64,000 nucleotides of DNA from Azolla caroliniana (GCA_043228905.1 JBHGNT010000004.1:3658001-3722000); one strand, 5' to 3'. Positions 2,470-64,000 are shown, counted from the stretch's first letter. The notes: a model not told the origin generated them from the sequence alone. Translations and numbers: made by a program.

Positions 2470-3300
2470 CAGATCGATGAAGCTCAATTGGTAAGGTTGC
2501 CCAATGGAGATGAGGTGGTCATGGGTTAAACCCCTACATTCCACAATGACATCTACTGAAATAAGAGATATATGGAGCAATAGAGAGGTGAGAAAATTGG
2601 GTTTCGAACCCAAGGTGTAGTGCTAGTAAGTAGTGTAAACGACTTCCCACTAGGGTAAGTTAATTACCATAAAAGAAAGAGAGCGAGATAGCTCAATTGG
2701 TGGTCTCGAGTTCAACCCTTACATTCCACAATGAAATTAGAGATATCTATGGAGTAATAGAGAGGTGAGAAAATTGGGTTTCGAACCCAAGACGTAGTGC
2801 AAGTAGTGTAAATGACTTACAACTAGGGTAACCTAATTACAATAAAAAAGAAAGGGAGCCTAAGATAAAAAGAAAAGAAAAGAAAAGATAGAGAGCCTTC
2901 ATAAAATCAAGCCCAAATGGTGGCATCTAGTGAAATTAGAGATATCTATGGAGTAATAGAGAGGTGAGAAAATTGGGGTTCGAACCCAAGATGTAGTGCA
3001 AGTAGTGTAAATGACTTATCATTAGGGCAAGCTAATTACAATTAAAAAAAAAAGAAATGAGAGAGAGAGAGCCTTCATAAAATCAAGCCTAGATGGATGT
3101 AGTTCAGTTGGTAAGGCAGCCCAATGGAGATTACGTGGTCATGGGTTCAACCCCAACATTCCATAGTGGCATCTAGTGAATTAATAGATATTTGTGGAGT
3201 AATAGAGAGGTGAGAAAATTGGGTTTCAACCCCAAGATATAGTGCTAAATTCTAATAATGTAAACAACTTATGATTAGGGTAAGCCAATTATGGTAAAAA
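2470..3300. mobile_element. Tandem of about 4 degenerate 160-210 bp tRNA-derived (SINE-like) units
   Basis: The core 'gagtaatagagaggtgagaaaattgggtttcgaacccaag' recurs at ~2575, 2752, 2951 and 3197. Plus-strand A-box/B-box-like motifs: AGCTCAATTGG 2481-2491, TAGTTCAGTTGG 3100-3111, GGTTCAACCC ~3144. Minus-strand GGTTCGAAACC at ~2600-2610. Units end in A-rich tails. Confidence 0.65.
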
Positions 3301-3308
3301 AAGAGAAC

Positions 3309-3595
3309 CTTCATAAAAATCAAGCTTTGTAATATGATTAGGTTTATAATCTTCATCAAATCAAGCCTTGTAATATGATTAGGTTTATAATCTTCATCAA
3401 ATCAAGCCTTGTAATATGATTAGGTTTATAATCGTCATAAAATCAAGCCTTCTAATATGATTAGGTTTATAATCTTCATAAAATCAAGCCTTGTAATATG
3501 ATTAGGTTTATAATCTTCATCAAATCAAGCCTTGTAATAGAGAGAGAGAGCCTTCATCAAATCAAGCTATTGTATTATTAGTACTTAGGTTTATA
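3309..3595. repeat. 41-bp minisatellite, about 6.5 copies, directly upstream of the FtsH start codon
   Basis: 'tcaagccttgtaatatgattaggtttataatcttcatcaaa' starts at 3320, 3361, 3402, 3443, 3484 and 3525, with a degenerate copy at 3562. Confidence 0.92.
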
Positions 3596-3673: not shown

Positions 3674-8203
<4,530 letters not shown>

Positions 8204-23000: not shown

Positions 23001-24641
23001 ATTAAACAACGCAAGTACATGTGCCAAACCCTCAGTATTTCCAAGGATCAATGTGTAAAACAGTCATAAACAACATACATTCGTGTGTGCGTGTGTGTAT
23101 AAAGATTCAGAGGAGTTGGATCCGTATATGTAAACAGAAGACATAAACACGAGCAAAATACGTTGCCATGGAGGAACCTAGCAGAAAACCTTGGGGGTGG
23201 GTATTTATATATATGATACGAAATTATCTAGATTTTTCATGTATATGAATTTCAACAAAAGATCTTGTTTCATATATAGAAACTTCAATGAAGAATCAGG
23301 TTTTCATGTGTATAAATAAAGTTTGAGCAAAAAAAATCCAGCTTTACGCAGAGAAGAAAAAAACAAGTTTAGACAAGATCAAAGAATTTGCATGCAGTGC
23401 AAGTTTTTCTTTTCATATTTTCAGTCCGTGAAAATTAAACAACGCAAGTACATGTGCCAAACCCTCAGTATTTCCAAGGATCAATGTGTAAAACAGTCAT
23501 AAACAACATACATTCGTGTGTGCGTGTGTGTATAAAGATTCAGAGGAGTTGGATCCGTATATGTAAACAGAAGACATAAACACGAGCAAAATACGTTGCC
23601 ATGGAGGAACCTAGCAGAAAACCTTGGGGGTGGGTATTTATATATATGATACGAAATTATCTAGATTTTTCATGTATATGAATTTCAACAAAAGATCTTG
23701 TTTCATATATAGAAACTTCAATGAAGAATCAGGTTTTCATGTGTATAAATAAAGTTTGAGCAAAAAAAATCCAGCTTTACGCAGAGAAGAAAAAAACAAG
23801 TTTAGACAAGATCAAAGAATTTGCATGCAGTGCAAGTTTTTCTTTTCATATTTTCAGTCCGTGAAAATTAAACAACGCAAGTACATGTGCCAAACCCTCA
23901 GTATTTCCAAGGATCAATGTGTAAAACAGTCATAAACAACATACATTCGTGTGTGCGTGTGTGTATAAAGATTCAGAGGAGTTGGATCCGTATATGTAAA
24001 CAGAAGACATAAACACGAGCAAAATACGTTGCCATGGAGGAACCTAGCAGAAAACCTTGGGGGTGGGTATTTATATATATGATACGAAATTATCTAGATT
24101 TTTCATGTATATGAATTTCAACAAAAGATCTTGTTTCATATATAGAAACTTCAATGAAGAATCAGGTTTTCATGTGTATAAATAAAGTTTGAGCAAAAAA
24201 AATCCAGCTTTACGCAGAGAAGAAAAAAACAAGTTTAGACAAGATCAAAGAATTTGCATGCAATGCAAGTTTTTCTTTTCATATTTTCAGTCCGTGAAAA
24301 TTAAACAACGCAAGTACATGTGCCAAACCCTCGGTATTTCCAAGGATCAATGTGTAAAACAGTCATAAACAACATACATTCGTGTGTGCGTGCGTGTATA
24401 AAGATTCAGAAGAGTTGGATCCGTATATGTAAACAGAAGACATAAACACGAGCAAAATACGTTGCGATGGAGGAACCTAGCAGAAAACCTTGGGGGTGGG
24501 GGGGGGGGATCATGAAAGAAGAAAAGACAAAACAAAGAGAGGATAAGAAACAGAGAGCAGAATTCATGGAAGCTCACCAAAAGAGCCGAAGAAGAGCATG
24601 GATCCAGATGCTGCAAGGACTCCCAGGGCGAGGTCTGCCAT
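19660..24641 (-). CDS. TMEM144-like multi-pass membrane protein (drug/metabolite transporter superfamily). Exons 24641-24578, 21365-21253, 21148-21022, 20885-20554, 20370-20183, 19855-19660
   Basis: Hand-spliced ORF with GT-AG introns in phase: MADLALGVLAASGSMLFFGSFAVPMKS...PLIYQSYKSLACFLTSW...FTWWGMVGALIWV...GIGLAQSLWS...GLFNGSSLIPLKY...YLVSFGVGS...GPALLSGVLWNVGNFLSIYATVYLGFSIGWPLVQ...WAVFYYREV...GAVSLSYFGIVG*. About 10 hydrophobic segments. Motifs match my recollection of TMEM144. Confidence 0.82.
21901..24498. repeat. Tandem array of 6 x 433-bp near-identical units inside intron 1 of the TMEM144-like gene
   Basis: Unit start 'ggtatttatatatatgatacg' at 21901, 22334, 22767, 23200, 23633 and 24066 (exact 433-bp period). 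Confidence 0.97.
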
Positions 24642-42534: not shown

Positions 42535-45353
42535 ATGGGTCGCTCACCAAATGGTTCAAAAGAGGGTGCCATGTCCATGTTGAAGAAAGGTGCATGGACT
42601 CCTGAAGAGGATGAAAAGCTCATAAACCACATCAATCAGCATGGCTATGGAAACTGGCGAGCTTTACCGAAGAAATGCGGTAATTCATCATATTATATAT
42701 TATGTATATGTGCATACCACTCCCCCTAACAATTTATATCCACTATATCGATGATAACTTTTGCATCATGTATTTATCGATGATCTAATCAAATTGTATC
42801 GATAAATTTTGTATCATGTATTTATCGATCTAATCGAATTTACTATGAAGTACAGATTATTATGTTGATCATGATCCTTTCATAATTATCTAGATACAAT
42901 ACTACATGCAGTTGCTAATTTCCGAGGACCCGTGCGGTTACAGATACATACATAATAATACAGAATATGTTTGCAATAGCTTGGATATAGTGTATTTTGA
43001 TCATATTATATGTACATAGGCTCATCATCATCTTTCAGTCTTGGTTTTTAATTTGCTTGATCCTGTACTTACTACTGGAACATGGTTACATCAATAAACA
43101 GTTTTGTTAATGTGGGAAATATATTCAAAATCAGGTCTTCAGAGGTGTGGCAAGAGTTGCCGGCTGCGCTGGACGAACTACCTACGTCCCGACATCAAGA
43201 GAGGAGCTTTCACTGAGATCGAGGAGCAGAAGATCATCCAATTGCATGCTCTTGTTGGGAACAAGTATGTGTTGATTCTCTCATATTGAACAGATATAGC
43301 CATATTATGATAACCTACTAGTATGATTAGGGGTTTCTTGAATGCAGTGTAATGGGGATAATATTCCCACAATTGATTGAATCATTAAACCTAGTCATTT
43401 TGGAGATATCTTAGAACCTAGTATGGGAACAAGCTAGATGTTAGTCATTTTATGATCTCTTATAACCTAGTATGATTAGGGTTCCTTTTTATATATATAT
43501 CTCATTCCAGGTGGGCATTCATAGCCTCCCAATTGCCGAAGCGGACGGATAATGAGATCAAGAACTATTGGAACACGGTTCTAAAGAAGAGATTCTCGCA
43601 AAAGATGTGGTGGTCTCCGTCGGCCTCGGGCTCGGGCTCGGCGTCATCCCCGACAGCGACATGTGCCGTGATACCCGAGAGCGTGTCCATGCTGAACCAG
43701 CTCATAGGTGGGAACAATGGGATAAAGCCCTACAATTCACAAGCTAGCAATACAGTCATGGTGAATGATCAAAGCTCCTTGGAGACCCTCAACATGTGGA
43801 TGAATAACATGCAAGATAGTACATTAACCAGTAGCACTAACTCTATTGATAAGGTTAAGGCTAGCTATAGCACTAGCAATATAGAACATAATAAGAAGAA
43901 TAGCAGTACTACTAATACTACTACTACTACCACTACTACTTTAAGTAATAGTAGTAGTAGTAGTAGTAATAGTAGCACAAGTCACCTTGCTCAATGGGAG
44001 ACTGCAAGGCTTGAGGCAGAGACAAGGCTTGCCCAACAATCCAATAGCATAGCTAAACCTAAACCATCTAACCCTAACTATATTAACATCAATTCGGCAC
44101 TTTCGGCATGTGGGGCCGCGGGCAGCAGCATGCCATTCAATTCCAAGTTTCGCGCTTTCAGCAGTTTGAACATGATAAATACCACTACTAGTCCAGGAGT
44201 GTCTGCACCACCACCAACACTTCCTAGTTACCTGGACACATGCAATATAATTGATCAGCTCACAAGCCCTAAGTATATGAATATAAACATGGCAAGGAAA
44301 CTAAACCCTAATATAATGAGCAGTACAGGTAGTAGTAACATTCAACATAGCACTGCCAACATTTTGACAAGCAACAATCTCTCTGGTGATACAATCTTGT
44401 CTACTAGCCCCAATTGTATCAACACCACCAACAACAACAACATATATAACACTAATGCCATGCAGATCAACACTATTATTTCACCTGTTAGTTATACTGA
44501 TACCACAGCTACTACTAGCTACTCTAGCAGCCATCATGATGAATGCATTGAATTCTTCCATCCATCCAGTACACAGCTAGCTAGTGCTAAATTGAATACT
44601 ACTACTACTACTTCTACTACTTCTACTAGGCCAACTTGTACTACTACTAGTACCATATCATTAACTGCTCATGATGATCAACAGAACCCTAACAAGCCTA
44701 CTCATTCAGCTGCTGTTAAGCTCATAAACCCTAGTGGTAGACTCTCTTGGAGCAAGCATGAATTGTCCCTCCCTAACCTTGTCCTCACAAGCCCCACCTC
44801 CTGTGAAGCTTCGCAGCCGATTCGACCCACCGGCTCATCCCCATGTCTCCATCGATCTTCTAGCTGTACCAACAACAATACCTCAGACACATATAATAAT
44901 GATTTTGACATTGTTTCGACACCTAGGTCTAGTGGCCGCGCCCGACTTAAGCTCGACAACATCATTCGATCCGCAGACTCCTCCAACCATATGAATGCTA
45001 GCATTAATGGCACATCCGTGAATCATTACAACTCTATCCTCATGATGATGAGCCCCGCTAGTTGCGATGATCCAATAGTATCTTCGAATGCGATTAACAC
45101 CACCAATGATACTACTGGCAGTAATGATCAGCTAGATGATATCTGCAATTTGTTGACATTGCCATCTCCGAAGAACATGATGCCGGGCATAAGCACATCT
45201 TCGTCGGGTTTGGATAACATCAATGCCGCCACGAGCATGATGCTACAGGGTCTAAACTTCCAACAGATCGAGACGCTAATGCTCGGCGGCGCGGATCAAC
45301 CGAATCATGACACCCAATTCAGCAATTTGCTAATGGATCTCAACTTGTGTTAA
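42535..45353 (+). CDS. R2R3-MYB transcription factor, subgroup 9 (MIXTA/MYB16/17/106-like). Exons 42535-42679, 43135-43264, 43511-45353
   Basis: [15 protein letters not shown]...[60 protein letters not shown]. Canonical two-intron layout. Subgroup-9 motif [21 protein letters not shown]. Confidence 0.94.
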
Positions 45354-48599: not shown

Positions 48600-50604
48600 A
48601 CATGAGGAGCGCATACGATACTGCGACGACACGCAGAAGGGACTCCTGTGTATTGCCCTTTCCTACTTCTCTAGTCATAGATCTCACGGTGGACTTCTTT
48701 CTCTCTTCTGATACAGAACGGAAGTTACATTTGGAGGTGGATCGCCTGCAACATCATTCAATTTTTATCTATGCTTTGGGAGGTCGTCCAAATCGTGCAA
48801 ATCTATGTCACTTGTTGCAGGCTCGTTTGCAAGGTGAGTTGGCATAAATTCTAGACATCCAATTTCTCCATAAGGGCTACTACCATGTTGAATTGATTAG
48901 TGGTGATATGGTAGATAACTGCTTCTATTGGGTAGTGTTAAGCTAAGGGGAAAATGGATGCAATTTTTAAAATGATATGCTAGATTCGATTAGGATGACA
49001 TGAGTGATACAATTTCTAGGAAATATGTTTTCTTTGCAATGTTTCCGGCCTTACCCAAAGAGTGGCGACCAATAATAAAGGATCTTTCTTTTTTTTAGTG
49101 GCACTTGTTGCAAGCTCGTTTGCAAGGTGAGTTGGCATAAATTCTCGACATCCAATTTCTCCGTAAGGGCTGCTACCATGTTGAATTTATTAGTCGTGAT
49201 ATGGTAGATAAACTGCTTTTGTTGGGTAGTGTTAAGATAAAGGGAATATCGATGCAATTTTTAAAATGATATGTTGGATTCGATTTGGATGACATGAGCA
49301 ATACAATTTCTAGGCGATTTGTTTTCTTTGTAATGTTTCCGGCCTTACCCAAAGAGTGGTGACCAATAGAGGTGAGATGAAAGATACACCTTAGTATATG
49401 ACTTGAGAAATGTACATAGAGAAAACAGAAGGAGACATTTCATCTCACCTCTATTGTGATACAAAGGCTAATACCTGAACATCTGATCAAACAAATGATA
49501 TCACATAAGAAACAACTGGAGCAAAAACTACAAGCTCTGCAACAAAAAAGAAGGTATTGCATAATTCCATCTCAGACTAGAAGTTGTATCTGAAAATAAG
49601 TGAAGTCCTTGCCATCGCTTCTTAAAACCCACTTGACGTTGCCATAGAACATCAGGTGAACCCTACAGATCATCATATTGACCACGTAGTGTATGGAGAA
49701 ATAACAACCATAATTCAATAAGCATGCTGTGGAGATGTATGTAAACATGATTAGAAACGACATTACATCTCGCTTTCCATATTATCCAAAGAGCTAATGA
49801 CATAAGAGTAATAAAGGATCTTGCTGCTATCATTGGGCAATTGGTAGATGACTATGTAGAAATTGATAGATTTAATGCAAAAAATCAGAATTTGCCAATA
49901 ATGAGGTTGTTAGGGTAGACCAATATGGTTCTTCCTTCTTCAATTACATCGCCAACATTAGTTGGGGGCAAAGTGCGAGTGCTGGATTGCAAAATCAATG
50001 CTTCAAATGTAGGAAAATTGGTCATATGGCAAAAGATTATATTTCAGTAGAATTCACATAATGGGGATAGTATGGAGAAATTTAAAGATAAGGTGGCTAC
50101 ATATGTGGTGGATGATTGGACTATGGTGAGAAAAGGAAAACTTGGTCTTCTTGCGAAGAATGTGGCGCTTTCCAATAAAAGGGTTCCAACAGGAAATAGG
50201 TGGACCCATTGATGCTCTCACACAAACATTACCAATGGATGATGTTTTGGTTGAGGGGGTAGATGGAGGCTCTATTACTAAACACAAATCTAATACGAAT
50301 TATATTATAGATAGCGATCTTTCTACTTCGTCAATGGACATAAGAGTTAATAATTTACTAGACTCTTTGGTGGTTGGGGCTCCACCTAAGGGTAACCATA
50401 CCTTGGTGCACTATGACAAGGGTTTAGGGAAGAAGGGAGATGAAACCTTTCCATTAGTTGTATACGAGGAAAAGAAAGTTCTCACGGTAATTCAGGAAGA
50501 CTCTATTGTGGAAAAAAATGGCGAAGTGGTTAACTTGTTGCAAATTGAGACCACTAAAAGTTGTCACTTGTCAAGGGAGGAGCCCCATAACTACAATGCG
50601 CGTA
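48600..50604 (+). mobile_element. Highly decayed L1-type LINE ORF1 relic with an internal ~293-bp tandem duplication
   Basis: ORF1-like remnants (IQFLRKGxYHVEF; FPALPKEW; GLQNQCFKCRKIGHMAK zinc knuckle at ~49998-50035). The segment starting at 48809 is repeated at 49102. Many stops. Confidence 0.6.
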
Positions 50605-51832
50605 TGTTAGTAGGCCAGGTAAGAGTCGGACAAGTGTGGAAGTGTCGGAGTCGACAATGTTCGGAGAAACACAGAGTTGGAGTCGGATCGATGAGGTGGA
50701 TCAATGAGTCAACATTTTACATATATTAGAGTTAGTTAGAAGTTTTGGTTAGTTCTTGCCGACAAGGCAAAGTGTGATTCTTGATGAGTCTGTCTTTCGG
50801 GTCACCTATAAAAAGGGATCGAGAACATTGTAACACTATCGTTCTAGTATGAGTTTAATACAGTTATTAGTTAGTAGAAATTTGTGTTGCGTATTCTCTA
50901 AGTAATATATTGTTCTATTCGACTCAGTTATATTCTGCTCGTAATTATATTATGCCAATTAGTCGATCACGATATATTTATATGGTATCGTAAAACTGCA
51001 CAGGAAGGTAGTCCGTATTCCATTTGTAATTCCACAGTTTTTTGATAGAACCTTTGGTCCTGTTGTGCTGTCGGTCTCAGTGGTCGACTGTCGAACCGAA
51101 CAACACAATAATTTTGGCACACCCGGTTACATTTGTATTCAACAGAGAACAAGTTAGAATGGATGTCGTCTAGCCCGGAAGCACCGGTTGATCGCAAATG
51201 TCCTCACACACACTCAACAACTCAACGTGTAGGGGAGGATCTTGTCGACAATTTTCAATCTACGTAGCAGAAACGCGCTGATCGGGAGTGGTCTTCGATT
51301 CCTGATTTAACTGAAAATTATTCGGACGATGGTCAGTTCGGACAAGTTTCTTTCTACGACATCTGGGGTGACGACAATATGCCTTAGCCTTACTCGAAGT
51401 ATCGAGATGGCACGGATGCAGAAGCACACATTAGGAAACTCTTGACAACATGAGAAATAAACCATGGAGCTCAGTGACTGTTGGCGGAAGTTGAAGATAA
51501 GTCTAAAATTGCTGAGTTTGTTTTGTCCTTGGATGGTCCGTCGGCAAATTGGTTTGCCTAGAACGGCATCAGCGCTGTCGTAGTGTAATTCACACACTAT
51601 GTGAAAATTGCATTTTTGTTCCTACGGATTAGATAAGGAGGAACTGGTAAGGAGAACCAGTGAGAACCTGATGAAGGAGGACCCGGTAAGGAAAACCTGA
51701 TGAAGGAGGACCCGATAAGGAGAACCGGTAAGAACCGGATCAATTAGAACCGACAAGAGCCGGATAAAGAAGGCCGGTGAGAGTCTCTCACCGGATTAAG
51801 AGACAAATTTGTAAAAAAAAAAAAGATTGTTA

Positions 51833-51906
51833 CATGCATAGGGAAGGATTCAAACCCTATACCTCCACGTAGACAAACCCCAACCTTACCATTGCACTAA
51901 CTTATC
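51833..51906 (-). promoter_or_regulatory. tRNA-like Pol III A-box/B-box cassette in LTR B (copies also at ~56475-56545 and ~60940-61005)
   Basis: Minus-strand TAGTGCAATGG (51899-51889) and GGTTTGAATCC (51856-51846). The 3' LTR copy has a consensus GGTTCGAATCC (60955-60945). Confidence 0.6.
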
Positions 51907-53389
51907 CTAAGTGTTCTAAATATAGATTTAATATATATAAGACCTTTATTTACGCCTACCTTTATTAAAAGGTAAGTCATGCATTTTTAGAATGCGTGAA
52001 TACTTTATTTATAAGAAAAATGTACACTAATAAAAAATTACTCATGCACATCTAGCGAGCATGAGCACTATATTTAGGAAATAAAAGCTTAGTGTAAAAG
52101 GCAACTCATACACACTATATTTAGAAAAAGCATGAAGCTATGCTTAGCCTCTGCCATCTTTATATAAGGAGGAGAGAGAGATGTATGGGGTTGTTGATTA
52201 TTTTACAAGGATTGATCAATCTAATATATTCGTGGGATTCACGAGTTTATCATCAAAATTCTCTTTCTTACAATCTAAATATTGATTAAATACACTAAAC
52301 ACGTGGGATTCACAAGTTTTATTTCTTACTTCTCTTTCTACCTATTCATAACTAGCCTTATATTGTATTCTTCTTTCTCCTAGTCCAAAACCTCAATGGT
52401 TCCCACCCGACTCATGCAACGATCTGGAGCCGAAAGGCACGACACAAGTGGTGAGCCTGACGTGAAACCAGGTGGCAAGGAGATGGAAAATCAACCGGGG
52501 GCTAACAACATGATGGCGATGTTTGAGCGGATGCTACGAGAACAACGTGCGATGTCGGAGATTGCGGCGGCTGTAGAGCGGCTCGTGCAACGGAACGGGC
52601 AATTCAACGGGAAAGACGTGTCGCGATATTTGCGAGATTACAAGGCGGAAATGCTACGGTGTGGGATTTCGGAAGGACTGCAAGTGACATCCTTCAACCG
52701 GGTGGCGACCGACGGGCTTCAAGGGAGTATCCACGGGATACGGCAGCAAAATCCGACGTGGGAGGCATTTGAAGAGGTGCTAAAGACCACGTTTGCCATT
52801 GAGGACTCCTCCAAGGCAACGAGGAGGGGATTCGAAGATTGGGTGGAAACACCAGATAAGGGGATGAAGGTCCTCGATGTGTTTTCGTCATTCGAAAGTC
52901 GGTTCGGGAGGTTGTCTGCGAGAGATCAAGCTATCCTCGCACCAAACAAAGTGATCATGTTCCTACGACCCGTGGACATCCGAGACTGGAAAGATCTTGG
53001 AGTGCTTTTGGAGGACACGACCACTGAGAGTGGCCTCACCAATGTTAGGATCAGTACTAAGACAGAGAAGGAATTAGTACTAAAAGATGAGGATTAGTAC
53101 TAAGAGAGGTGTAGAACTCTCGAGAGAAGGAAAGAGTGAGCGAGAGAGAGAGAGAGATAGAGAGAAAGAAAGGGTGAGAGAATGATGATAAAAGATATAT
53201 ATTATGTGAAGAGAGTATACAATAGTAGCTAGGAGGCTTAAGACTGGCGTTGAACCGATTTGGTTTGAAATAATGCCTTGTGCCTCCTTTTATAGTGTTC
53301 TTAGGAGAACTCCTGAAGTTTCTAGAATGTTTTAGAGAAATCTGGAATATACATCAATTTTCTATAATAATATAAATAATAAGTATTAC

Positions 53390-53458
53390 AATGTGTGGTC
53401 TAATGGTCAAGAGCTCGACCCATGTAGCATAAGGTCATGGGTTCGAGTCTTGCCGTAT
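53390..53458 (+). promoter_or_regulatory. tRNA-like Pol III A-box/B-box cassette in LTR C
   Basis: TGGTCTAATGG (53396-53406) and GGTTCGAGTC (53440-53449) at tRNA-like spacing. Confidence 0.6.
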
Positions 53459-54061
53459 CATGACACTATCCTCCCTTTAAAACGACGAGTGTCATGAGTC
53501 GTTTTGGATTGAGGACCCGGTTTGTCTAGATATTGACGATGGAATTCTTCAAGAAGACTCTCTGGGACTATATCCTCGCCAATCGACTAGATAGTAGAGC
53601 TTGTTGCGAACAATCTTGGAATCAAGGATGGCGGCAACCTCGTACTTAGGTCCATCTTCAAGCTCGATCGGGGGTGGAGGCTGTGTAATACGTCTTGGGA
53701 TGGTGCTCTCTTGATAGGGTTCGAGGAGAGAACTATGAAACACCGGATGTATCCGAAGTTGCGGAGGTAGATCGAGACGAAAAGCAACATCATTAATCTT
53801 TCCTATAATACGGAAAGGACCTAATCGCCGATAATCCAACTTCTCACATGGGTGAGTAGTCTTGATGTGTCGTCGTAGTAGCCATACCCGATCTCCAATG
53901 TTAAAACTGGATGGAAGTCGATGACGATTCGCGTAAACCTTGTGTGTTTGTTGAGCTTGTTGGAGATGAGTAGATAAATCGTCTTGTATAACCGCTCTAA
54001 ACGATCCTCTACGCAAGGATTCTGGGGTTTCAAATACACACCACCAAGGGTGACAACCCAT

Positions 54062-54922
54062 TGTCATGGCGTGGCTTGCCTAGAAGCGTAGTGTTGCGTA
54101 GACAAAAGATATTGTGAAAGTGAGGAAGGAATCACTGGGATTATGGACAAAAGAGACGAAAGAGTAGAGATAGAGTAAATAGAGATCAACAAGATATGAC
54201 AAGCTAGGATATTGAATGATATTTGAAGGAATAAAAGAGATTTATAATTATTTGATGAAAGAGTTACAAAAGTGGTTGTAAGCGTCGTTGATCCTTTGAA
54301 CTTGGTCTCACAAGATAATCGCTCTTCTCTTTCTTGATAGTAGGCCACAACAATCTTCACTTCAATATTTTGATGAAGATAAGGCTCAAACCGCCTCCCT
54401 CTTGTTGAGAGTTGACCACCACGATCACCAAGCTAGAGCTCCACCTTTATGTTGAACTTCTTCCTTTCTTTCTCTATTTTATGTTATCTCTTATGTAATA
54501 TATATTTGATTGATATCTCATACCTCTCCCCCTTTGATCTTCTCTTTCACCATTTAAATAGGTGACCCCATGCATATGATGCATTGGAGGGTACAAGTCA
54601 TGCATGTGATGCATGATAGGCATCTCGCTCATTTGAGCTTTCATGTATGAAAAAATATATGGCATAAGAATAAACAAACAAAAATATAGTTTTAAAAACA
54701 GGATCTAGCCTAATGGTAGGTGTGTTGACTTTGGTATAAGAGGTTGTGGGTTTGAGTCTCTCAAATATTATTGAATACAACATGTAACGTCGTTTTTATA
54801 TCATGAAGCAAATCCTTTATTCTAAATATATTATTAGTATAGAGTAAATCGTAAGATTTGAAAGTCATAGGGTGGGGTTATTGGTTCAAGTCCTCTCTTG
54901 TTCGTGTAATATAATATATTTA

Positions 54923-54959
<37 letters not shown>

Positions 54960-55094
54960 TTTCTTTACATATATATAATATTATCATATGTGTTGTTAAT
55001 ATTATCTTTATATATAAAACATTATCAAATTTTATTTTAGTTACGTATTTATCTTATTGTAGACTTTTAATGTGAAGCTTTCTACTTCATGACA
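54062..55094 (-). mobile_element. Solo LTR (family D, 1033 bp) inserted in the integrase of element C
   Basis: TGTCATG...CATGACA termini and flanks CCAT/CCGT. Removal restores TPFYAYT-GCHPWW. TATA-like CTATTTAAAT on the minus strand at ~54552-54561. Confidence 0.85.
54700..54897 (+). promoter_or_regulatory. One clear and one degenerate tRNA-like A-box/B-box cassette in solo LTR D
   Basis: TAGCCTAATGG (54706-54716) with GGTTTGAGTC (54749-54758), and a second B box GGTTCAAGTCC (54883-54893). Confidence 0.5.
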
Positions 55095-56137
55095 CCGTAT
55101 AAGCATAAAATGGTGTAACTTTAGTTGATGTGTGGACAGAGTTATTATAGGCAAATTCGGCGAAGTGGAAAATATCTGCCCAGTCATCCTGATGATAGCT
55201 TAGAAAGCACCGAAGATACTGCTCCAGTGTTTGATTTGTTTGTTCTGCTTGGCCATCGGTTTGTGGGTGGTAGCCGGAGGAGAGGTTACAAGTGACCTTG
55301 AGCATTTTAAAAAGGTGCTTCTAGAATTTTGATACGAACTGGGGTCCACGGTCGCTGATGATACTATCGGGAAGGCCATGATGCCGACATACTTCACGCA
55401 TGACAATTTCAGCGGTTTCTTCACTAGAGATTTCCTTAGTACATGGCAAGAAATGAGCCATCTTTGTATATCGATCTACGCCTGTTAGAATCGCATTGAA
55501 CCCTTTAGAGACTGGAAGATCTGTGATGAAGTCTAGAGCAATGGATTGCCACGGCTTGCTTGGAATTGGTAATGGTTCTAATAAACCATATGGATGATGC
55601 CTTGGCATTTTTGCTCTACAGCATGTATCACAAGTTCGAACAAAATCTTCGACAAATTGTTGCATATGGGGCCACCAGAATGATCGTTGTACTAAATCTA
55701 ATGTTTTAGTACTACCAAAATGCCCAGCTGTATATGTGTCATGACAGTTTTGGACTACTCGAAGGTGGCAAGAACCATTAGGAACATGCAAGAGTTCATT
55801 AAAGAATAGTAATCCATCATGGTATTTGAATTGCTGATAGTCCGTACCTGGTGGTTACGACTGTGAACAAGATGCTCGAAGGGGATCAATTTGTGCTAGA
55901 ATGGCTTGCGCGAAAGCATCGGTCTTCAAGTCGTCACGTATAGTATTGATAACGTGGGAATCCATGGGCATGCCAAAGACCTATGTTGCTTGCAATCGTG
56001 TCGGTCCCAAGATTACTTGCTTTTGGTTATCAAAAGCTAGCTCGCTGGGACGCGGTGTTAGTTACAAACGCTGTGATAATGCATTTGCCTTCCCTTGGTG
56101 CTTCCCCGGACGATATGTAATTTTGAAGTCGAAACGC

Positions 56138-57025
56138 TGTCGTAGTGTAATTCGCACACTACGTGAAAAATTACATTTTTCGTTCTCCGGATAGGATATG
56201 GAGTACCCAGTGAGAACCAGAAGGAAGAACCGGTGAGGACCGAAACCGGTAAGGAGACCGACAAGAGCCGGATGAAGAAGGCCGGTGAGAGTCGGTGAGA
56301 AACGGACGAAGAGGACCGGTAAGAAGGATCTGGTAAGAACCGGATAAAGAAAACCGGCGAGAACCGAAGGAAGCAGAACTAGCAAGAGCCGGATGAAGAA
56401 GGCCGGTGAGAGTCTCTCACTAGATGAAGAGACATATTTGTAAATAGAAGAAAGTATAAAATTATATATTACATGCATAGGGCAAGATTCGAACCTTGCA
56501 CCTCCATGTTAATAATGTTAAGCCTTATCATTATACTAGCGTATTATGAATTTTAAAGTTATACTAAACTTTATCCCATGTAAAATTTCTAAACATGCAT
56601 GGTACAAAAAGTTATTCATGCATAGACACTCGAGTTAGAAGAAAGGATGAGATAGAAAGCTAATCATGCACATGCAATGTGCATGAAAACTAAAGATAGG
56701 AAAAGCATGATGCTTGCATGTGATAAACTTAGACTCTTCCAACACTATATAAGAGAGAAAGATGTATAGAGGTTGTTGATTATTTTACAAGGGTTGATTA
56801 ATATAATATAATTGTGGGATCCACGAGTTTGCTAACTATTTTCCTCTCTTAATTTGAGTACTCACTAATACACTATACTTGTGGGATTCACGAGTTTTTC
56901 ATATCTTTCTTTCTTACAATGTATTTCATATTCTTAATTGCCTTAGAATTTTCTTTCCTCCTAGTCCAAAACCCCAGCGGTTCCCACCCGACTCACGCAA
57001 CGATCCGGAGCCGCAAGGCACGACA
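56138..57025 (+). mobile_element. Solo LTR related to family B (888 bp) inserted in the RNase H of element C
   Basis: TGTCGTAGTGTAATTCGC...GCACGACA with flanks ACGC/ATGC. Removal restores HFLT-R-FDFKITYRPG. Confidence 0.9.
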
Positions 57026-60000
57026 ATGCGTGAGGAAGTGGGCCACCAAGCTTGACGTCGATTTAACACACGAGCGTCCTGAAAGTAGGCAAGGTTTTTG
57101 TGGTCACTGAATACGGTGACTTGATGAGAGGATCCCTCTAGAAAATACCTCCATTGCGTAAAAGAGTCCCCTATTGCCAATAGCTCCTTATCATGAATTT
57201 CGTAGTTGATTTCGGTGGCGTCAAACTTGCGTGAGTGAAAAGCCACAGGATGTAGCTTCTCATCATTACCCCATTGTGACAGAATGCTCCCCAATGCGAA
57301 ATCCGATGCATCTGCTTCGATAATGAATGGTTCTTCATGAAGATCGACTTACGAGGAGCCTATAACCTCGTACAGATCCGACCAGGAGATGAATGGAAGA
57401 CCGCGTTTCGCACCAGATATGGGCACTTCGAGTATACGGTCATGCCGTTCGGCCTCACTAATTCGCCAACAGTCTTCCAACACATGGCAAATGATATATT
57501 CTGAGATCTCTTGGATGTTTTTTTGATCATCTATTTGGATGATCTACTGGTTTATTCGAAGACCCAAGAAGAGCATGATTCTCATGTACTGTTAGTACTA
57601 AAACGACTTTGAGAACATGGTCTTTATGCAAAGCTGGAAAAATGTAGTTTTGGGTGCAACCAGGTGGAATTTCTGGGCTATGTCATTTCCTCGGAAGGCA
57701 TCTACATGGACCCAGCTAAGGTTAAAACTATGGTAGAGTGGCAGACTCCGCGTTCGGTGCGAGATGTGCAATGCTTTTTAGGCTTTGCCAATTTTTACCG
57801 GAAGTTCATACAAGATTACTCAAAGCTCGTTCTGCCTCTCACACAACTTACTAGGAAATAGAAGGAATTAGTAATAAAAGATGAGGAATAGTACTCAGAG
57901 AGGTGTAGAACTCTCGAGAGAAGGAAGGAGTGAGCGAGAGAGAGAGATAGAGAGAGAGAAAGGGTGAGAGAATGATGATAAAAGATATATATTATGTGAA
58001 GAGAGTATACAATAGTAGCTAGGAGGCTTAAGACTAGTGTTGAACCGATTTGGTTCGAAATAATGCCTTGTGCCTCTTTTTATAGTGTTCTTAGGAGAAC
58101 TCCTGAAGTTTCGAAGAAGAATGGGTCACTCTGATTTATCCAAGACTTGCAACTGGTGAACAAGGTCAAGATCCAGAACTCCGGAGTTGGTCCGATAGTG
58201 GACGAATTTGCGGAATCATTTGCCGGTCGTGTGATATACTCCATCGGAGACCTATACTCAGGGTATGACCAATTCCAACTAGCCGTGGAAAGCTGAGACA
58301 TCACTACCATGCAGACACCGATAGGATTAGTCCGAATGTGCACTCTACCACAAGGAGCGACAAACTCGGTTGCACATATGATGAACGCAATGAACAAGGT
58401 GCTTCAAGATTGCATTCTGGAGATAACGATGCCGTTCCTAGATGACATTCCGATGAAAGGATGCACGGTAGAAGAAAAAGATGAAACTATGGATGATCGG
58501 GGATGCCGAAAGTTCATAGTCGACCATATTCGTGATTGTGAGAAAGTGCTTCGAAAGTTAGAAGATGTGCACCTAACACTTTCCGAGGAGAAATCGGCAT
58601 CCGGGCAAGAAGGGATATTGGTAGTCGGACATCTATGTGGGCCCTACGGCCGAAGACCGTCACCAACCAAGATCGATGTGATTCAAGCTATGAAAGATGT
58701 ATGCGAGTCACAATCCAAAGTCCGAAGGTTTCTTGGAGCTTGTGCATTTTATCACATATGGATTCTGCACTATGCACATATTGCGGACCCACTCTATCAC
58801 TTATTGCGGAAGGGGAAGAAGTTAGAATGGAAATCGGAACACACCAAAGCCATGAAAAAGCTCAAGAAAACACTACGGAGGGCTGAAGCACTTAAGAAAC
58901 CGAGCTATGAGCGACTGATCATAGTAACGGTTGATACAAGTCCAACTAGGATCGGATGGGTCATCAATCAAGCCGACTCGGATGGTTTGCGATATCCGAT
59001 CCGATTCGGAGCAAAGGTTCTCAACGAATGGCAGCACAGATATGCACAAGTCAAAAGAGAATTATGGGGAGTCGTGTCAGCAATCAAATCGGATCGAGAT
59101 TATTTGATTGGAGCCGAAGTAGTGATTGAAACGGATTGTCTTCTGATACTCGGGATGATGCGGTGTTGCACGATACCGGATGTGGCTATGCTAAGATGGA
59201 TTGCATATGTTAAGTCGCTTAACGCGGACGTACTACACATCTCCGGAAAAGACAATGCGGTAGTGGATATGCTATCAAGGGCTTGGTTCGGAGACGACAT
59301 AGCCGAATCCGATAATGAAGAAATTTCTGAAGACTACTTTGCTTCAGAGCACATATGCTGAGTAAATGTAATCCAAGAATTCTGAGAAGAAGAATACGAG
59401 GGAGAAAGCTTGATGATCAAGAAGGTGCTACAAGAGATTGAGGAATCATCGGAAGATAAAGAGAAGAGAGCTGAGATCCGAAGGAAGAAGAGGCAAGTCC
59501 AAAAGTTCTTCTTGAAAAATGGATTAATATGGAGGGAGCCGAAAATACCGGATGGCATACCACTTCGGGTAGTCGGGACGAAAGAGCAACGAAACTAGAT
59601 AATGTCCGAGTTTCACGAATCCAATTGGGTAGGACATCGAGGAACATGGACAACTTTTGTGGAAATCAAACAAAAATATTGGTGGAAGAATATGCACAAA
59701 GATATAGTGGAGTTCATAGAAAGCTGAGAGAAGGGTCAAATCTACTCCAGAGTTTGACATTGAGATGAGTTACATCCAACATTCTCACCGACAATCAACT
59801 TCAAATGGATGGTCGAACATTGTAGCCATGCCAACCGGGATCGGACAAAAGAAGTACTTGGTGTTAGCTCGGGAAGATCTCACAAACCAAGTAGAAGGTC
59901 GGGCGGTACGAAGGAAAACGTGTTTTGCGGTATGCCAATTTCTTTTAGAGGAGGTGTTTTGTAGGTACGGGTGTGTAGGACAAGTGATTGCGGATAAGGG

Positions 60001-61008
60001 AGAACTCGACTTTGATAAAGCTAGGGAATTCTTCACCAAACATGGAGTTCGGTTAACACTAACAACGACATACAATCAGGACCGGACAAGCACCGGTAAT
60101 GCCGACAGAAGTCACAATTGCGACATGGATAGTGCTGCCGTGGAAGGAAGGGATGAGCTGGGAAGAATTACTAGCAGTCCGGATACGACAACTGGAAGGA
60201 AGACCGGAAGACATAGCTGAAGCAACATGCCGACAATAGGAAGCACGATTCCAGAACAAAAGCCGATTCGACGGAAAGCATCGACTATGGCCACGAAAGA
60301 TTAAAGAAGGAGATTGGGTGATTGTCTATGACAACAGTTTGGATCATCAACATACAACAATACGGAAGTTCGCTAAGAGGTGGTTCGGGCCATACGAGGT
60401 TTGGAAAGTTTTCGACAACGGAACTTACCGACTATGCAAGTTGGATGGAACAATACTATGAGTGCCTATCGCGGGGAAACAGGTGAAGATTTTTAAGAAG
60501 CAGATTGACGGTGAACCTTATGTAAGCTTAGACAAAACCGACAACAAGGAGCAATCGGACACAACTCGTGGTGATGTAGAAAGCGAAGAAAGTGGTCTAC
60601 AATTGATAGTTGATATAAGGGAGGAATTGGGAAGTGCTACGGATGAAGACGAACAACAGGCATCGGGAACTTCGACACATACCGGAGGATGTGCGGGTTT
60701 GGAGGGGGCGAGTGTCGTAGTGTAATTCGCACACTACGTGAAAATTGCATTTTTGTTCCTACGGATGGGATAAGGAGGAACTGTATGAAGGACGACCCGG
60801 TAAGGAGAACCGGTGAGAACCAAATGAAGGAGGAACCGGTAAGGAGAACCAGTAAGAACCGGATCAATCAGAACCGGCAAGAGCCGGATAAAGAAGGCCG
60901 GTGAGAGACTCAAATTTGTAAATAGAAGAAGAGATTGTTACATGGGATTCGAACCCTGTACCTCCACATAGACAAACCCCAACCTTACCATTGTACTAAC
61001 TTATCCTA

Positions 61009-61770
61009 TGACAGGAACTAAACGCTCCGATGAGCACTGCTCAGCCACAACCGAGCTAGGAATCAAACACAGAAAACGGGGAATGAATACACACGACACA
61101 AAGGAGAGAAGAGTACACAGGATGTTTAACGTGGAAAACCTTGAGAGGGAAAAAAAACCACGACAGTCCACTAACTGCTAACTATCACTATATCACAATG
61201 ATTACAACAGTGAGCTCACGGAGGCAACGACCTCGTGCTCACGATCTTCGCCACAAGCGGCGGTTACAATAGAGGCAACGACCTCTTCCGCTCTCTCTCT
61301 CTCTCTCTCTATACACTGTTACGCGCTCTCTAGTCTTGCACCAACAAGAATGACAACTCTAACAAAAGAGTTTGCCCTAAGTCATATTTATACTAATATG
61401 ACTTTTCGGCTATTTACAAATATAGCCCTGATGGACTCTCAGATACATATTTACAAATATGTCCCTTCATCCGCTGAGCACTTCTCACCGGGCCTGCATC
61501 ATTCGGCTCTTGCCGAGCACTTGTCATCCGGTTCTCACCGGGCCTTCACCATCCGGCTCTTGCCGGGTACTGCTCATCCGGTTCTCACCGGGTCTTCACC
61601 ATCCGGCTCTTGCCGAGTACTGCTCATCCGGTTCTCACCGGGTCTTCACCATCCGGCTCTTGTCGGGTACTTCTCATCCAGTTCTCACCGGGTGTCTTCA
61701 CCATCCGGCTCTTTCCGGGTACTTCTCATCCGGTTCTCACTTCCCATCCGGAGGGACCCGTTTCCTAACA
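61009..61770 (-). mobile_element. Solo LTR (762 bp, Copia-like motif) inserted in the 3' LTR of element B
   Basis: TG...CA termini and perfect 5-bp TSD TCCTA (61004-61008 and 61771-61775). The minus-strand GTGGTTTTTTTTCCC...GGTTTTCCACGTTAAA motif is common in Copia LTRs. Contains a ~54-bp tandem repeat at 61480-61740. Confidence 0.88.
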
Positions 61771-64000
61771 TCCTAAGTGTTCTAAATATAGATTTAATAT
61801 GTATAAGACCTTTATTTACGCCTACCTTTATTAAAAGGTAAGTCATGCATTTTTAGAATGCGTGAATACTTTATTTATAAGAAAAATGTACACCAATAAA
61901 AATTTACTCGTGCACATCTAACGAGCATGAGCACTATATTTAGGAAATAAAAGCATAGTGTAAAAGGCAACTCATACACATTTTAAGTGTGCATGAACAC
62001 TTTAGAAAAAGCATGAAGCTATGCTTAGCCTCTGCCATCCTTATATAAGGAGGAGAGAGATATATATGGGGTTGTTGATTATTTTACAAGGATTGGTCAA
62101 TCTAATATATTCGTGGGATTCACGAGTTTATCATCAAAATTCTCTTTCTTACAATCTAAATATTGATTAAATACACTAAACACGTGGGATTCACAAGTTT
62201 TATTTCTTACTTCTCTTTCTACCTATTCATAACTAGCCTTATATTGTATTCTTCTTTCTCCTAGTCCAAAACCTCAATGGTTCCCACCCGACTCATGCAA
62301 CGATCTGGAGCCGAAAGGCACGACAGCACGTTCGAGTCCTTCAAACAATTAACTACCAGATTCATACAATTGTTTCATCGACAGATCTCGCAAAGAGATC
62401 AGATTGGTCAGTTCTATGCAACATATCAGGAACAACATGAAACAATGTCAAAATTTGTGATTTGTTTTCAAAATTTACAACTTCAAATCTCGAAGACAAT
62501 TCTAGATGAAGAATTAAAGGATATATTCCTCGAAGCAATTTGGGAACCTCTTTGAACAACTCTAGCAGCGTTCGATTTTCGAAATCAATCAATCGATCAG
62601 GTGATTGATAAGGCATTAGTTATGAATCAGACACACAAAAATAAGAATAGTATGAATATGTCCGCACTACATAATAAATTACCAACATTGGAAGGGCTCC
62701 GATTTCGGCAAGCGGTTCAGTGTACGACTTGCCTGAACACTGGACATTCGACAATGGAATCCAGTCTACGTACCCACTGTACGATATGTCATTCTAAAGC
62801 TTATTCTGTCGAGCAATGTGAATATAATTTGCTTAACAAAAAACCAGCCTCAGTTCGACAAATTTATCTTGAAAATTCTTATAAGGAGAACAGGAATAAA
62901 TCAACTAATCGATCACAAGAGGATGATTGTTATGAGGATAAATATCACTCGGATCAGCAGGATTGTGATGACAATTGAAGAAATGATAAAGATCCTAGAC
63001 GAGATGAGTATCAGCGTAACGACTCTTATGATTCATGACGGGATGAAGATCGGTAGAGCTATCATCGCCGTGATGGTTGGAATAATGACCATGATTATTC
63101 ACCTCAAAGAGATCATGGTAACTGACAACAATATGGAGGAGGTCATTATCACGAAGACAAAAAGACTAATAATTTTCAGCGGGCAGATGATAATCATCAA
63201 GGAAATCGATGGTTCAATGATAACAAGAAGCCCAAGGGGTCTTGGCAATTTCAACATGAGACTCGGGAGAGAAAAATTCCGATTTGCAGGATGTTCGGCG
63301 TCCTCAATATGAAACTAGTGAATCAAGTGGTTCATCGGTACCGAATTGTTACACATGCAGGAAAGATGGTCATTATGCAAATCAATATCCGACAAGGGAA
63401 AAAGGGAAGGCGCCAACCGTCAATATGGTTGTGCCCGAAATTCAACAAGTGACCACTCGAAGCAAAGGAAAACAATCGGAGTGGGAAGTGCAAGAAGCTG
63501 TTTGAAAAGCCGCTAAGGAATGGGTGGAAGAAGCTAATAAAAATAAGGTCGCCTATATGATGCAGATAATAAGATATCAAATAAGGGGCAACCTACTCCT
63601 CAGTCCGAACAGTTACCGATCCATGAGCAGGAGGAACCCTGAAGATTTTGGCGGATTGCCAAGTCTCATTACCTTTGGTAGGATTACGAAAGTTAGTACC
63701 CTGTTTTACAAAAAAGGTGGCAACTCTTATTGCACAAAAAGATGCAGAGCAAGTATCGGTCAATTATAGTCATCCAAGCAATGGTTCGACAGTCATGGAT
63801 GACCAAAGTGCTTCAATAAAGGTGATAATTCGGGGTCAAGAAGTAGTCGGGACTATTGTCAACGGTGGGTCAGGGGTCAATGTCATCAACAAGACCACCT
63901 ATGATAAGCTTGGAATTACCAAGTGGGATGCATATGGTTAAGGATGGCCGATACAAGCACAATTAGGCCACTCACGCTAATTCGACAATTGGATGTCATT

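Follow-up and report, generated by a model that had tools for sequence, protein, structure and literature searches.

We found that Gypsy retrotransposon LTRs in the window (the whole 64,000-nucleotide stretch of Azolla caroliniana DNA analyzed here) carry a tRNA-derived pair of Pol III promoter boxes, an A box and a B box, placed antisense in U3. This cassette is a fixed part of the LTR in a clade of coding chromoviruses and occurs also in the Phygy-like LTRs B and D. Judging from its sequence, we give somewhat less than even odds (roughly 45%) to the proposal that it is a landing site for TFIIIC/TFIIIB (Pol III), which would set up a boundary and an open patch separating the Pol II promoter of the element from silenced chromatin in the flanks.

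A scan with the textbook consensus detected six cassettes with at most one mismatch between positions 51500 and 62400, against a mean of 0.05 (maximum 1) in 40 Markov shuffles (Table 1). All six are antisense in U3: three in copies of LTR B, one in LTR C, and two in solo LTR D, the second of which was not matched by model R1. As in type 2 Pol III promoters, they combine A and B consensus boxes with an AT-rich upstream region and tRNA spacing (A-to-B starts 43 to 44 nt apart, 48 nt for the second pair of D). Their A boxes lie 259 nt (B 5' LTR), 206 nt (B solo LTR), 101 nt (C), and 145 nt (D) from the TATA box. The LTR B cassette sits ∼270 to 325 nt inside the LTR start, and that of C ends 16 nt from the 5' terminus of its LTR. 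The first-pass annotation had placed A and B boxes in B (three copies), C, and D, with tRNA spacing and upstream of the TATA boxes, a degenerate A box in the B-type solo LTR, and an additional B box in D; the coordinates and the consensus scan bear this out, the degenerate box having one mismatch and the additional B box belonging to a weaker A/B pair. It had LTR B starting near 51833, which has to be moved to 51576. A cassette is not present in every LTR of the region: LTR F and an LTR-like stretch at 50480 to 51110 have none (best match, four mismatches), and similar boxes are also present outside LTRs, at 2480 to 3260. Since matches with two mismatches are frequent (44 of 100 loci), we did not count them as cassettes.

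Table 1. Elements, LTRs, and cassettes, with positions counted from the first nucleotide of the window
Feature	Position	Strand	Remarks
Element B, complete	51576-62325	+	Phygy-like non-chromovirus Gypsy; 4-bp TSD GCGC/GCAC; spans gag to pol
5' LTR of element B	51576-52444	+	TG..CA ends; PBS after LTR; PPT before 3' LTR
Cassette, B 5' LTR	51847-51899	-	Antisense, tRNA-derived; A box 51889-51899, B box 51847-51856
TATA box, LTR B	52159-52169	+	Predicted from sequence; presumed Pol II role
PBS, element B	52449-52462	+	5 nt past 5' LTR
3' LTR of element C	53043-53465	-	Tcn1-like chromovirus in gag region of B; TG..CA ends; PPT directly adjoining
TATA box, LTR C	53287-53295	-	101 nt from A box
Cassette, LTR C	53396-53449	+	Antisense; A box 53396-53406, B box 53440-53449; 0 mismatches to consensus
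Element C integrase C-terminus, SH3 + chromodomain	53549-54076	-	Pfam PF24626, PF00385
Solo LTR D	54062-55094	-	TG..CA ends; 4-bp TSD CCAT/CCGT
Cassette 1, solo LTR D	54706-54758	+	Antisense; A box 54706-54716, B box 54749-54758; 1 mismatch
Cassette 2 (weaker), solo LTR D	54835-54892	+	A box 54835-54845, B box 54883-54892; 1 mismatch, consensus scan
Solo LTR, second B subfamily	56138-57025	+	TSD ACGC/ATGC
Cassette, B-type solo LTR	56486-56538	-	A box 56528-56538 (1 mismatch), B box 56486-56495
3' LTR of element B	60713-62325	+	PPT 60701-60712; interrupted by solo LTR F
Cassette, B 3' LTR	60946-60998	-	A box 60988-60998, B box 60946-60955
Solo LTR F	61009-61770	.	TSD TCCTA; no cassette; inserted 6-10 nt upstream of A box of B

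Element B contains an RT/RNase H frame at 58297 to 59358 and has its nearest named protein matches in Riccia and Adiantum (about 55 to 61%); its PBS is presumably of the tRNA-Trp type. The B 3' LTR is 92.6% and 97.8% identical to two parts of the 5' LTR. Compared with the B 5' LTR, the B-type solo LTR is 76% identical on the downstream side of the cassette and 67% identical across it; taken as a block, the cassette is less alike between the two B subfamilies than the remaining LTR. We called element C Tcn1-like on the basis of its chromodomain integrase (PF00385) and its self-priming relatives, in a tree that contained no named Tcn1 references. Solo LTR D, labeled Phygy-like, comes here without a coding part, its polarity being deduced solely from the TATA box and the CT-rich 3' part; sequencing runs include joints that skip it. 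The 4-bp TSDs of B and D (GCGC/GCAC, ACGC/ATGC, and CCAT/CCGT) are of the NCGN type preferred by Phygy, each pair showing one CpG-type difference.

Relatives of element C were collected with its integrase end as bait, that is, independently of the cassette. In C's clade, 12 of the 12 testable LTRs have the antisense cassette in their first 130 nt (at most three mismatches, shuffle P ≤ 0.033), and its presence or absence amounts to one change on the tree (support 93/88). None of the 33 other chromovirus LTRs has a cassette at the LTR start, which disposes of the idea of a general LTR feature; the comparison set was made up of chromovirus LTRs, with Phygy-like relatives of B and D lying outside it. 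The 12 positive loci belong to a single accession series with near-copies included and therefore represent about seven lineages, perhaps from one host group; a single host lineage may be the source of every cassette-positive locus. Given the single origin, orientation is not an independent count. Near the LTR start of L045, a locus outside the clade, there is a B-like core, but the best score of this locus, five mismatches, is at chance level. Viral contigs searched with the C integrase end, its alignment, and the RT of B contained no relatives. In the C clade and in B, LTR polarity is set by the PPT, PBS, and self-primer. The self-primer, a PBS matching the element's own R start, spans 12 nt in L002 and L006 and 9 nt in L014, with no clear match in L009; its sequence differs between L002 and L006, and in both it begins 32 to 33 nt past the TATA box that corresponds to the one of LTR C. 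Open frames of 305 to 389 codons lie downstream of the LTR in L002, L006, and L014.

The occurrence of the cassette in 12/12 clade LTRs and 3/3 B LTRs rules out a private SINE insertion and upholds the earlier description of a tRNA-derived, family-fixed, antisense U3 unit; likewise, neither random orientation nor a lack of excess conservation, the other contrary patterns foreseen at the sequence level, came true. Three DNA or probably-DNA runs each have hundreds of contigs extending over the B cassette, and among the joints listed there, none crosses it. Run X21, RNA by guess, has no contig on the B cassette, and run X14 is probably DNA, so that these runs are uninformative either way on expression.

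The boxes proved to be more conserved than their flanks, as a check proposed in the first-pass annotation was meant to reveal. Among 12 representatives, identity reaches 0.88 in promoter-fixed columns versus 0.38 in 49 flank and spacer columns; box columns have 0.67 to 0.79 identity, and spacer and flanks stay at background (0.35 to 0.39). The column values were obtained by anchoring without gaps, so that the identity of the flanks is underestimated. Of the columns not used by the scorer, T20 and three of the four AGGT loop positions are invariant in 12/12, and the A-B spacing is 43 to 44 nt in 14 of 15 aligned cassettes (46 nt in L039). B-box-to-LTR-end distances range from 16 to 49 nt and A-box-to-TATA distances from 101 to 259 nt. 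It is rather unlikely, in our view, that the cassette is a passenger, a tRNA-derived SINE head that inserted once long ago, was passed on with the LTR, and is now decaying, with apparent box conservation arising from common descent and consensus-based choice. One gain would be enough for this, similar units exist outside LTRs, and copies often have T at C56, as does most of the family-B depth; yet decay would not single out the box columns from a spacer and flanks at background, keep unscored tRNA positions invariant, or hold the spacing constant while the adjoining U3 lengths vary widely, and the module is also present in a second Gypsy lineage. Because C56 is T in 54 to 64% of the family-B contig depth while the mirror CpG change stays below 15%, the data suggest that a B subfamily with a weakened B box has amplified. 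An unbroken GTTCRA core is present in 4 of 4 contigs with high coverage and in 3 of 8 with low coverage (Fisher P = 0.08).

The suggestion that the cassettes are tRNA mimics or a source of tRNA-like small RNAs is, in general, not supported. ARAGORN detected no tRNA in the whole window or in 22 loci, and Rfam gave no tRNA match at E values up to 10 between 49000 and 64000. T-stem and D-stem positions are variable among cassettes, and the pairs formed in the acceptor (34/84) and anticodon (26/60) stems equal the chance expectation of 0.42, so we rejected a conserved cloverleaf or functional tRNA gene; the D stem is partly kept (30/48 pairs, P = 0.003), and RNA shape is therefore not wholly lost. 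The LTR C cassette folds as a hairpin (z = -4.0), not a cloverleaf, and a spacer-to-B-box duplex is found in 4 of 5 members of C's subclade (P ≤ 0.025). When the Pol III strand of the other 10 LTR cassettes was folded, no hairpin signal emerged (P = 0.07 to 0.64), which rules out a general hairpin and confines the fold to C's subclade; of 26 predicted pairs, a single one shows a two-sided change. In the B 5' LTR and the B solo LTR, T runs lie 22 to 24 nt past the B box. Some cassettes have no TTTT after the B box; otherwise the first one lies 1 to 52 nt past it, that of C falling outside the LTR, and there is no fixed Pol III terminator.

These data bear on the alternative of a divergent Pol III promoter with a functional product, a short antisense or hairpin RNA that from the 3' LTR would run antisense into the end of pol. 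We consider this unlikely. It would fit box conservation equally well, agrees with the hairpin of C's subclade and the T runs of B, and has a parallel in simian foamy virus LTR microRNAs, which need A and B boxes (PMC3993851), but it is at odds with the 10 cassettes devoid of a hairpin signal, the single two-sided change, the shifting or missing TTTT, and the unconserved spacer sequence.

A role in the element RNA would have the sense transcript, which just past the PPT complements the D-loop, variable loop, and T-loop of tRNA, pair with a host tRNA for packaging, circularization, or priming, much as the U3 part of the bipartite Ty3 PBS does. This would account directly for the antisense polarity and the PPT-adjacent position, the more so as the U3 of Ty3 pairs with the T and D arms of tRNAiMet (PMC5371799) and the invariant AGGT loop positions lie outside the classic promoter boxes. 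However, C-clade relatives self-prime, the PBS of L002 and of L006 matching the element's own R start over 12 nt, the conserved columns are the near-universal tRNA ones and not the arms of one tRNA, T-stem and D-stem vary, and the B and D cassettes lie 200 to 400 nt from the LTR start, so that we hold such a role to be quite improbable. As a primer in the C clade, the cassette was rejected: the PBS fits the sense R start better (12 versus 7 to 8 nt).

The flank of 16 to 19 nt between the B box and the TG terminus of C is also found in B (P = 0.003 and 0.0004 versus shuffled flanks). Because one gain explains the chromovirus clade and B carries the flank of C as far as the LTR terminus, the sequences favor exchange, here involving two Gypsy lineages that are only distantly related, over convergence; of the earlier alternative, "convergently acquired or exchanged," the second half is the one favored. 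The accompanying statement that the LTRs are otherwise dissimilar needs qualification, given this flank and the U3 tandem repeats common to LTR B and solo LTR F. We propose that one tRNA gene or SINE head was captured into an ancestral chromovirus LTR and that a later exchange of the LTR end passed the cassette to B. Selection would act on replicating master elements, and inserted copies would decay at the B-box CpG.

An antisense Pol III promoter in coding elements with their own Pol II promoter calls for another job, and a chromatin boundary is our preferred candidate. Fission yeast tDNAs are TFIIIC- and Pol III-dependent barriers (PMC2040200), and heterochromatin targeting has been suggested for chromodomain integrases (PMC7466625). 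Facing outward, the cassette would have its AT-rich TFIIIB site on the side of the TATA box and direct a Pol III transcript, if any, away from the Pol II promoter. Since the fission yeast barriers are active in either orientation (PMC2040200), a barrier role alone does not explain the polarity. In Arabidopsis, clustered tDNAs in heterochromatin are methylated and silent (PMC7544208). LTR F and the 33 other chromovirus LTRs do without a cassette, which counts against a barrier, as do the C56 changes of family B and the 67% versus 76% identity between its subfamilies.

The position of solo LTR F just upstream of B's A box, roughly the expected Pol III start, could also mean that the boxes act as mobile landing pads, used by elements that, like Ty3, insert where Pol III transcription starts. 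We regard this as very improbable: it is a single case, the other three nested insertions (C, D, and B solo) lie elsewhere, no recurrent insertion appears there among the loose ends listed, and landing would be a consequence of binding that offers no reason to keep the boxes.

Extending the boundary reading, it is possible, though doubtful, that autonomous Gypsy elements of a seed-free plant lineage carry a tRNA-gene-type barrier at the outer LTR edge, bind TFIIIC/Pol III to stay active in heterochromatin, and trade the module between Tcn1-like and Phygy-like lineages; it would then be a portable anti-silencing part taken from a host Pol III promoter, at very many sites of the host genome. Many TFIIIC sites would, if this is true, be scattered through heterochromatin. 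A barrier would give plant retrotransposons a cis-acting means to resist silencing, and whether tDNA/TFIIIC barriers work in plants would become testable by a single B-box mutation. Even if passive, the cassette is a marker of the exchange of LTR ends by distantly related Gypsy lineages, and it gives rise to false calls of SINEs or tRNA pseudogenes. The main text and supplementary material searched for a fern genome gave nothing on an excess of tRNA genes, for which LTR cassettes could be responsible.

Element C shares its chromodomain integrase and self-priming relatives with Tcn1 chromoviruses, and B and D share 4-bp NCGN-type TSDs with Phygy non-chromoviruses; the available parts of the accounts of these groups (PMC6317226, PMC2864245) mention no tRNA-like LTR part, the term "tRNA-like" having no occurrence in that of PMC6317226. 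The model for the proposed mechanism comes from Pol III-type boundary elements, the tDNA barriers of fission yeast cen1 (PMC2040200) and B2 SINEs (PMC8136502), which are host loci or SINEs rather than LTR modules and do not come from plants; CTCF binding is named for B2 boundaries (PMC8136502). The U3 Pol III microRNA genes of foamy viruses also place an A/B-box unit in the LTR of a coding retroelement, but they are terminator-bearing hairpins with shown products (PMC3993851), whereas here the hairpin is limited to one subclade and no terminator is fixed. Ty3 likewise has tRNA-complementary U3 sequence in a Gypsy element, as short boxes for the one tRNA that primes it (PMC5371799); here there is a full A-to-B unit, and clade members self-prime.

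The closest likeness is to TRIMs. Cassandra and Ajax captured a Pol III internal promoter in their LTRs as well, but it is 5S-derived, the elements are nonautonomous, and in Cassandra it drives the element's own transcript (PMC10886601). Helenus TRIMs (TRIMp3; Kojima 2024, PMC10886601), with Selaginella as the sole plant case reported, have tRNA-derived sequence in their LTRs with conserved A and B boxes, mostly not a functional tRNA, for which a SINE insertion into the LTR was proposed as the origin; the first-pass annotation, which knew of no description of such a feature, needs this qualifier. The same source notes that "not a few" Repbase LTRs have tRNA-like parts, its analysis being confined to TRIMs. 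Helenus elements are noncoding, 311 to 1,263 bp long, and their boxes, thought to be the element's own promoter, run A then B in the LTR sense in the four consensus LTRs compared (PMC10886601). The published LTR Pol III promoters (Cassandra, Helenus, and Ajax) thus belong to tiny noncoding elements and are thought to make element RNA. The cassettes described here lie in the outer U3 of coding Gypsy elements that have a TATA box of their own, B spanning gag to pol and the relatives all having been found by integrase, and they are antisense in all cases, which is not the orientation of a promoter for the element's own RNA.

We scanned for tRNA-derived cassettes (an A box plus a B box, the Pol III promoter boxes) with textbook consensus boxes and found six with ≤1 mismatch in positions 51500 to 62400, where 40 shuffles gave a mean of 0.05. 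Window-wide the count was eight, the remaining two being in an array at 2480 to 3260; no cassette was found in LTR F or in the LTR-like stretch at 50480 to 51110. The box positions specified in the first-pass annotation were confirmed, and the distance from cassette to TATA, which it had put at ~100 to 300 bp, measured 101 to 259 nt. The A-to-B start-to-start spacing was 43 to 44 nt (48 in D's second pair); ARAGORN and Rfam detected no tRNA.

The polarity of B (a Phygy-like non-chromovirus Gypsy element) and of C (a Tcn1-like chromovirus) was set by the PBS, the PPT, and the coding strand; for D, it was judged only from the TATA and the CT richness of the 3′ part. In two relatives of C (L002 and L006), the 18-nt stretch that follows the LTR has a 12-nt match to the sense strand of their own LTR, 32 to 33 nt past the TATA, with a different sequence in each; the match is 9 nt in L014 and none is clear in L009. 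This corresponds to the self-priming predicted for Tcn1 (PMC6317226). Since such a match places the Pol II start, the cassette lies in U3 and antisense, as first proposed. A conserved motif ∼35 nt past the TATA, GGTTCAACRCC (window 53246 to 53256, minus strand; L005, L006, L007, and L009), looks in itself like a B box in sense orientation, with no A box to accompany it, and overlaps the self-primer in L006.

The nearest named relatives of B's RT/RNase H are from Riccia and Adiantum (∼55 to 61%), and Tcn1 and Phygy elements have been described in moss and club-moss (PMC6317226); the window thus comes from a land plant that is probably seed-free. B and D fit Phygy by their 4-bp NCGN-type TSDs, as matched to the description in that source only. 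Chromovirus C is rearranged: part of its RT (∼57330 to 57860) is on the strand opposite RNase H and integrase and adjoins a truncated LTR C copy without the cassette end (window 57025 to 58112). Tandem U3 repeats are common to LTR B (4-bp TSD) and LTR F (5-bp TSD), with 70 to 84% identity, which suggests that modules were exchanged between LTR types. A 433-bp unit is repeated six times in tandem (99% identity) at 21897 to 24500.

Positions of features in the window and, where a locus is named, in outside loci
Feature	Position	Strand	Details
Element B	51576-62325	+	PBS 52449, PPT 60701, TSD GCGC/GCAC
LTRs of element B	51576-52444 and 60713-62325	+	
Chromovirus C, 3′ LTR	53043-53465	-	C carries SH3 + chromodomain and interrupts B's gag region
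Solo LTR D	54062-55094		TSD CCAT/CCGT; inside C
Solo LTR, second B subfamily	56138-57025		TSD ACGC/ATGC; inside C
Solo LTR F	61009-61770		TSD TCCTA; inside B's 3′ LTR
U3 repeats shared by B/F LTR types	51640-51815, 56200-56420, 61450-61740		
Host-gene frame, FtsH/AAA protease	5999-7246		415 aa
Host-gene frame	43476-45353		625 aa; starts with Myb repeat most like MIXTA/MYB106
A/B pair of GC ∼0.47 family	L054:981 and 6884, L048:3515, L063:6316		both LTRs in L054

We looked for relatives of C independently of the cassette, using as bait an alignment of 30 integrase ends, which yielded 79 loci from metagenomes (the best 80 of 534 confirmed, in 6 of 64 collection parts) and a further 21 from genome contigs. 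The LTR start was called by a fixed PPT-plus-TG rule in 46 of the 100 loci, and 45 were used, L016 being too short. An antisense cassette with ≤3 mismatches was present in the first 130 nt of the LTR in 12/45 (shuffle P ≤ 0.033), two of which (L009 and L020) also scored 3 on the sense strand; the remaining 33 scored ≥4 mismatches, with no cassette at the LTR start. On a tree of 53 rows (8 unlabelled; L038 omitted as too short), the positives and window C formed one group (support, 93/88) with one change, and 0/500 shuffles were as low. A model of 15 cassettes, which itself included 10 of the 12 positives, matched only these 12 among the 100 loci, always antisense at the LTR start. The carriers are coding elements, because the LTR runs on into open frames of 305 to 389 codons in L002, L006, and L014, and two of these (L002 and L006) have further DNA matches to the RT, RNase H, and integrase of C. 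The 12 positives share one accession series, near-copies included, and cover ∼7 lineages, perhaps from a single group of hosts. The cassette is absent from sister elements of low GC (L015, L018, L027, L065, and L069). The 21 loci L080 to L100, whose chromovirus-like integrase ends come from prokaryote genome bins, are probably eukaryotic contamination. An unrelated, probably fungal chromovirus family (GC ∼0.47) carries a 2-mismatch antisense A/B pair ∼240 to 250 nt inside the LTR, which the model did not match.

Four DNA runs, which carry three different organism labels, gave contigs over all three window cassettes; their depths there did not depart from those of neighboring bins, depth not being copy number. 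Among the joints listed, one of low depth (54639 to 54731) deletes D's A box. Private SINE insertion, named at first pass as a refuter, was not borne out: the B cassette was covered by 582, 899, and 1,249 contigs in three sequencing runs (X1, X11, and X14), with no joint among those listed, and the cassette was antisense at the LTR start in 12/12 C-clade relatives.

Over 12 representatives, mean column identity was 0.67 in the A box and 0.79 in the B box, 0.59 in both the D-loop tail and the variable loop, and 0.35 to 0.39 upstream, in the anticodon arm, and downstream, so that the boxes are indeed more conserved than neighboring U3. Ten promoter-fixed columns were 0.88 identical, versus 0.38 in 49 others; T20 and three AGGT loop positions, none used by the scorer, were invariant. 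The A-B spacing was 43 to 44 nt (46 in L039), versus 16 to 49 nt from box to LTR end, and AT content in the 40 nt preceding the A box exceeded that of the LTR in 10/10. Acceptor (34/84) and anticodon (26/60) stem pairs were at the chance expectation of 0.42, free T stem pairs numbered 19/36 (P = 0.13), and D stem pairs 30/48 (P = 0.003). No fixed T-run terminator was found after the B box. A hairpin occurred only in C's subclade (4/5 at P ≤ 0.025), with a two-sided change in 1/26 pairs; there, the spacer past the A box is almost the reverse complement of the sequence around the B box, so that a long hairpin forms at the end of the LTR (window 53396 to 53465; L003, L009, L020, and L039). Such features are better explained by retention of a promoter in the DNA than by retention of an RNA. 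That the cassette yields a Pol III RNA product is the least unlikely of the rival explanations, and that it pairs with a tRNA in the element's RNA, as in Ty3 (PMC5371799), is quite improbable.

We tentatively propose (probability, about 0.45) that the cassette is a putative TFIIIC/TFIIIB/Pol III platform, which would act as a boundary and keep an open patch for the Pol II promoter. In the C clade, it occupies the outermost U3, between flank and promoter. Fission-yeast tDNA barriers need TFIIIC and Pol III and work in either orientation (PMC2040200), and it has been suggested that elements with a chromodomain insert into heterochromatin (PMC7466625). In Arabidopsis, methylation silences clustered tDNAs (PMC7544208), so a protective effect cannot be taken for granted in plants. 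A landing pad for inserting elements is very improbable: solo LTR F (window 61004 to 61770) does lie 6 to 10 nt upstream of B's A box, about where Pol III would be expected to start, which is reminiscent of Ty3-type targeting, but this is one case only.

Against a platform, the B-box position C56 is T in several single copies and in 54 to 64% of family-B depth, with the mirror change at <15%. CpG decay by itself hardly accounts for this, which suggests that a subfamily of B has spread despite a weaker box. Taken as a block, the B cassette is 67% identical between subfamilies, versus 76% for the rest of the LTR. Intact cores were found in 4/4 high-coverage versus 3/8 low-coverage contigs (P = 0.08), an excess that is only suggestive. 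That the cassette is a mere passenger seems unlikely.

One gain explains the cassette throughout the chromovirus clade. Past the B box, B's flank can be aligned to the final 16 nt of C, as far as its TG terminus (P = 0.003 and 0.0004), and B's outer U3 repeats match F; B's LTR thus looks mosaic and may have captured a C-type LTR end. D's flank gave no such match to the C terminus (score, −1). Of the initial alternatives, convergent acquisition or exchange, these results favor exchange over convergence, and the LTRs, described as dissimilar, are not wholly so. Similar non-LTR units at 2480 to 3260 (best E value, 1.7e−4) indicate a pool of tRNA-derived heads in the genome. These ∼four degenerate units, in each of which tRNA-like A/B cassettes on the two strands converge, are followed by a 41-bp tandem array (3309 to 3539) upstream of a probable host gene start (∼3674); they may be a promoter-located array of SINE- or MITE-like type, derived from tRNA.

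We consider the cassette observation real and its function putative. The literature covered, including passages of PMC13570524, PMC4139406, and PMC2864245, with subscription papers mostly outside the search, describes no antisense cassette in autonomous plant Gypsy LTRs. Within that literature, the first-pass remark that no description was known holds for that case, not for LTR A/B boxes in general. According to PMC10886601, tRNA-like parts occur in "not a few" LTRs of Repbase, although TRIMs alone were studied there, so longer cases may sit in Repbase. Foamy viruses carry A/B-box microRNA genes in the LTR (PMC3993851). Helenus TRIMs have tRNA-derived A/B boxes in their LTRs, as here, but are non-coding, and the four LTRs compared read sense, whereas the cassettes described here are antisense in coding Gypsy elements (PMC10886601).
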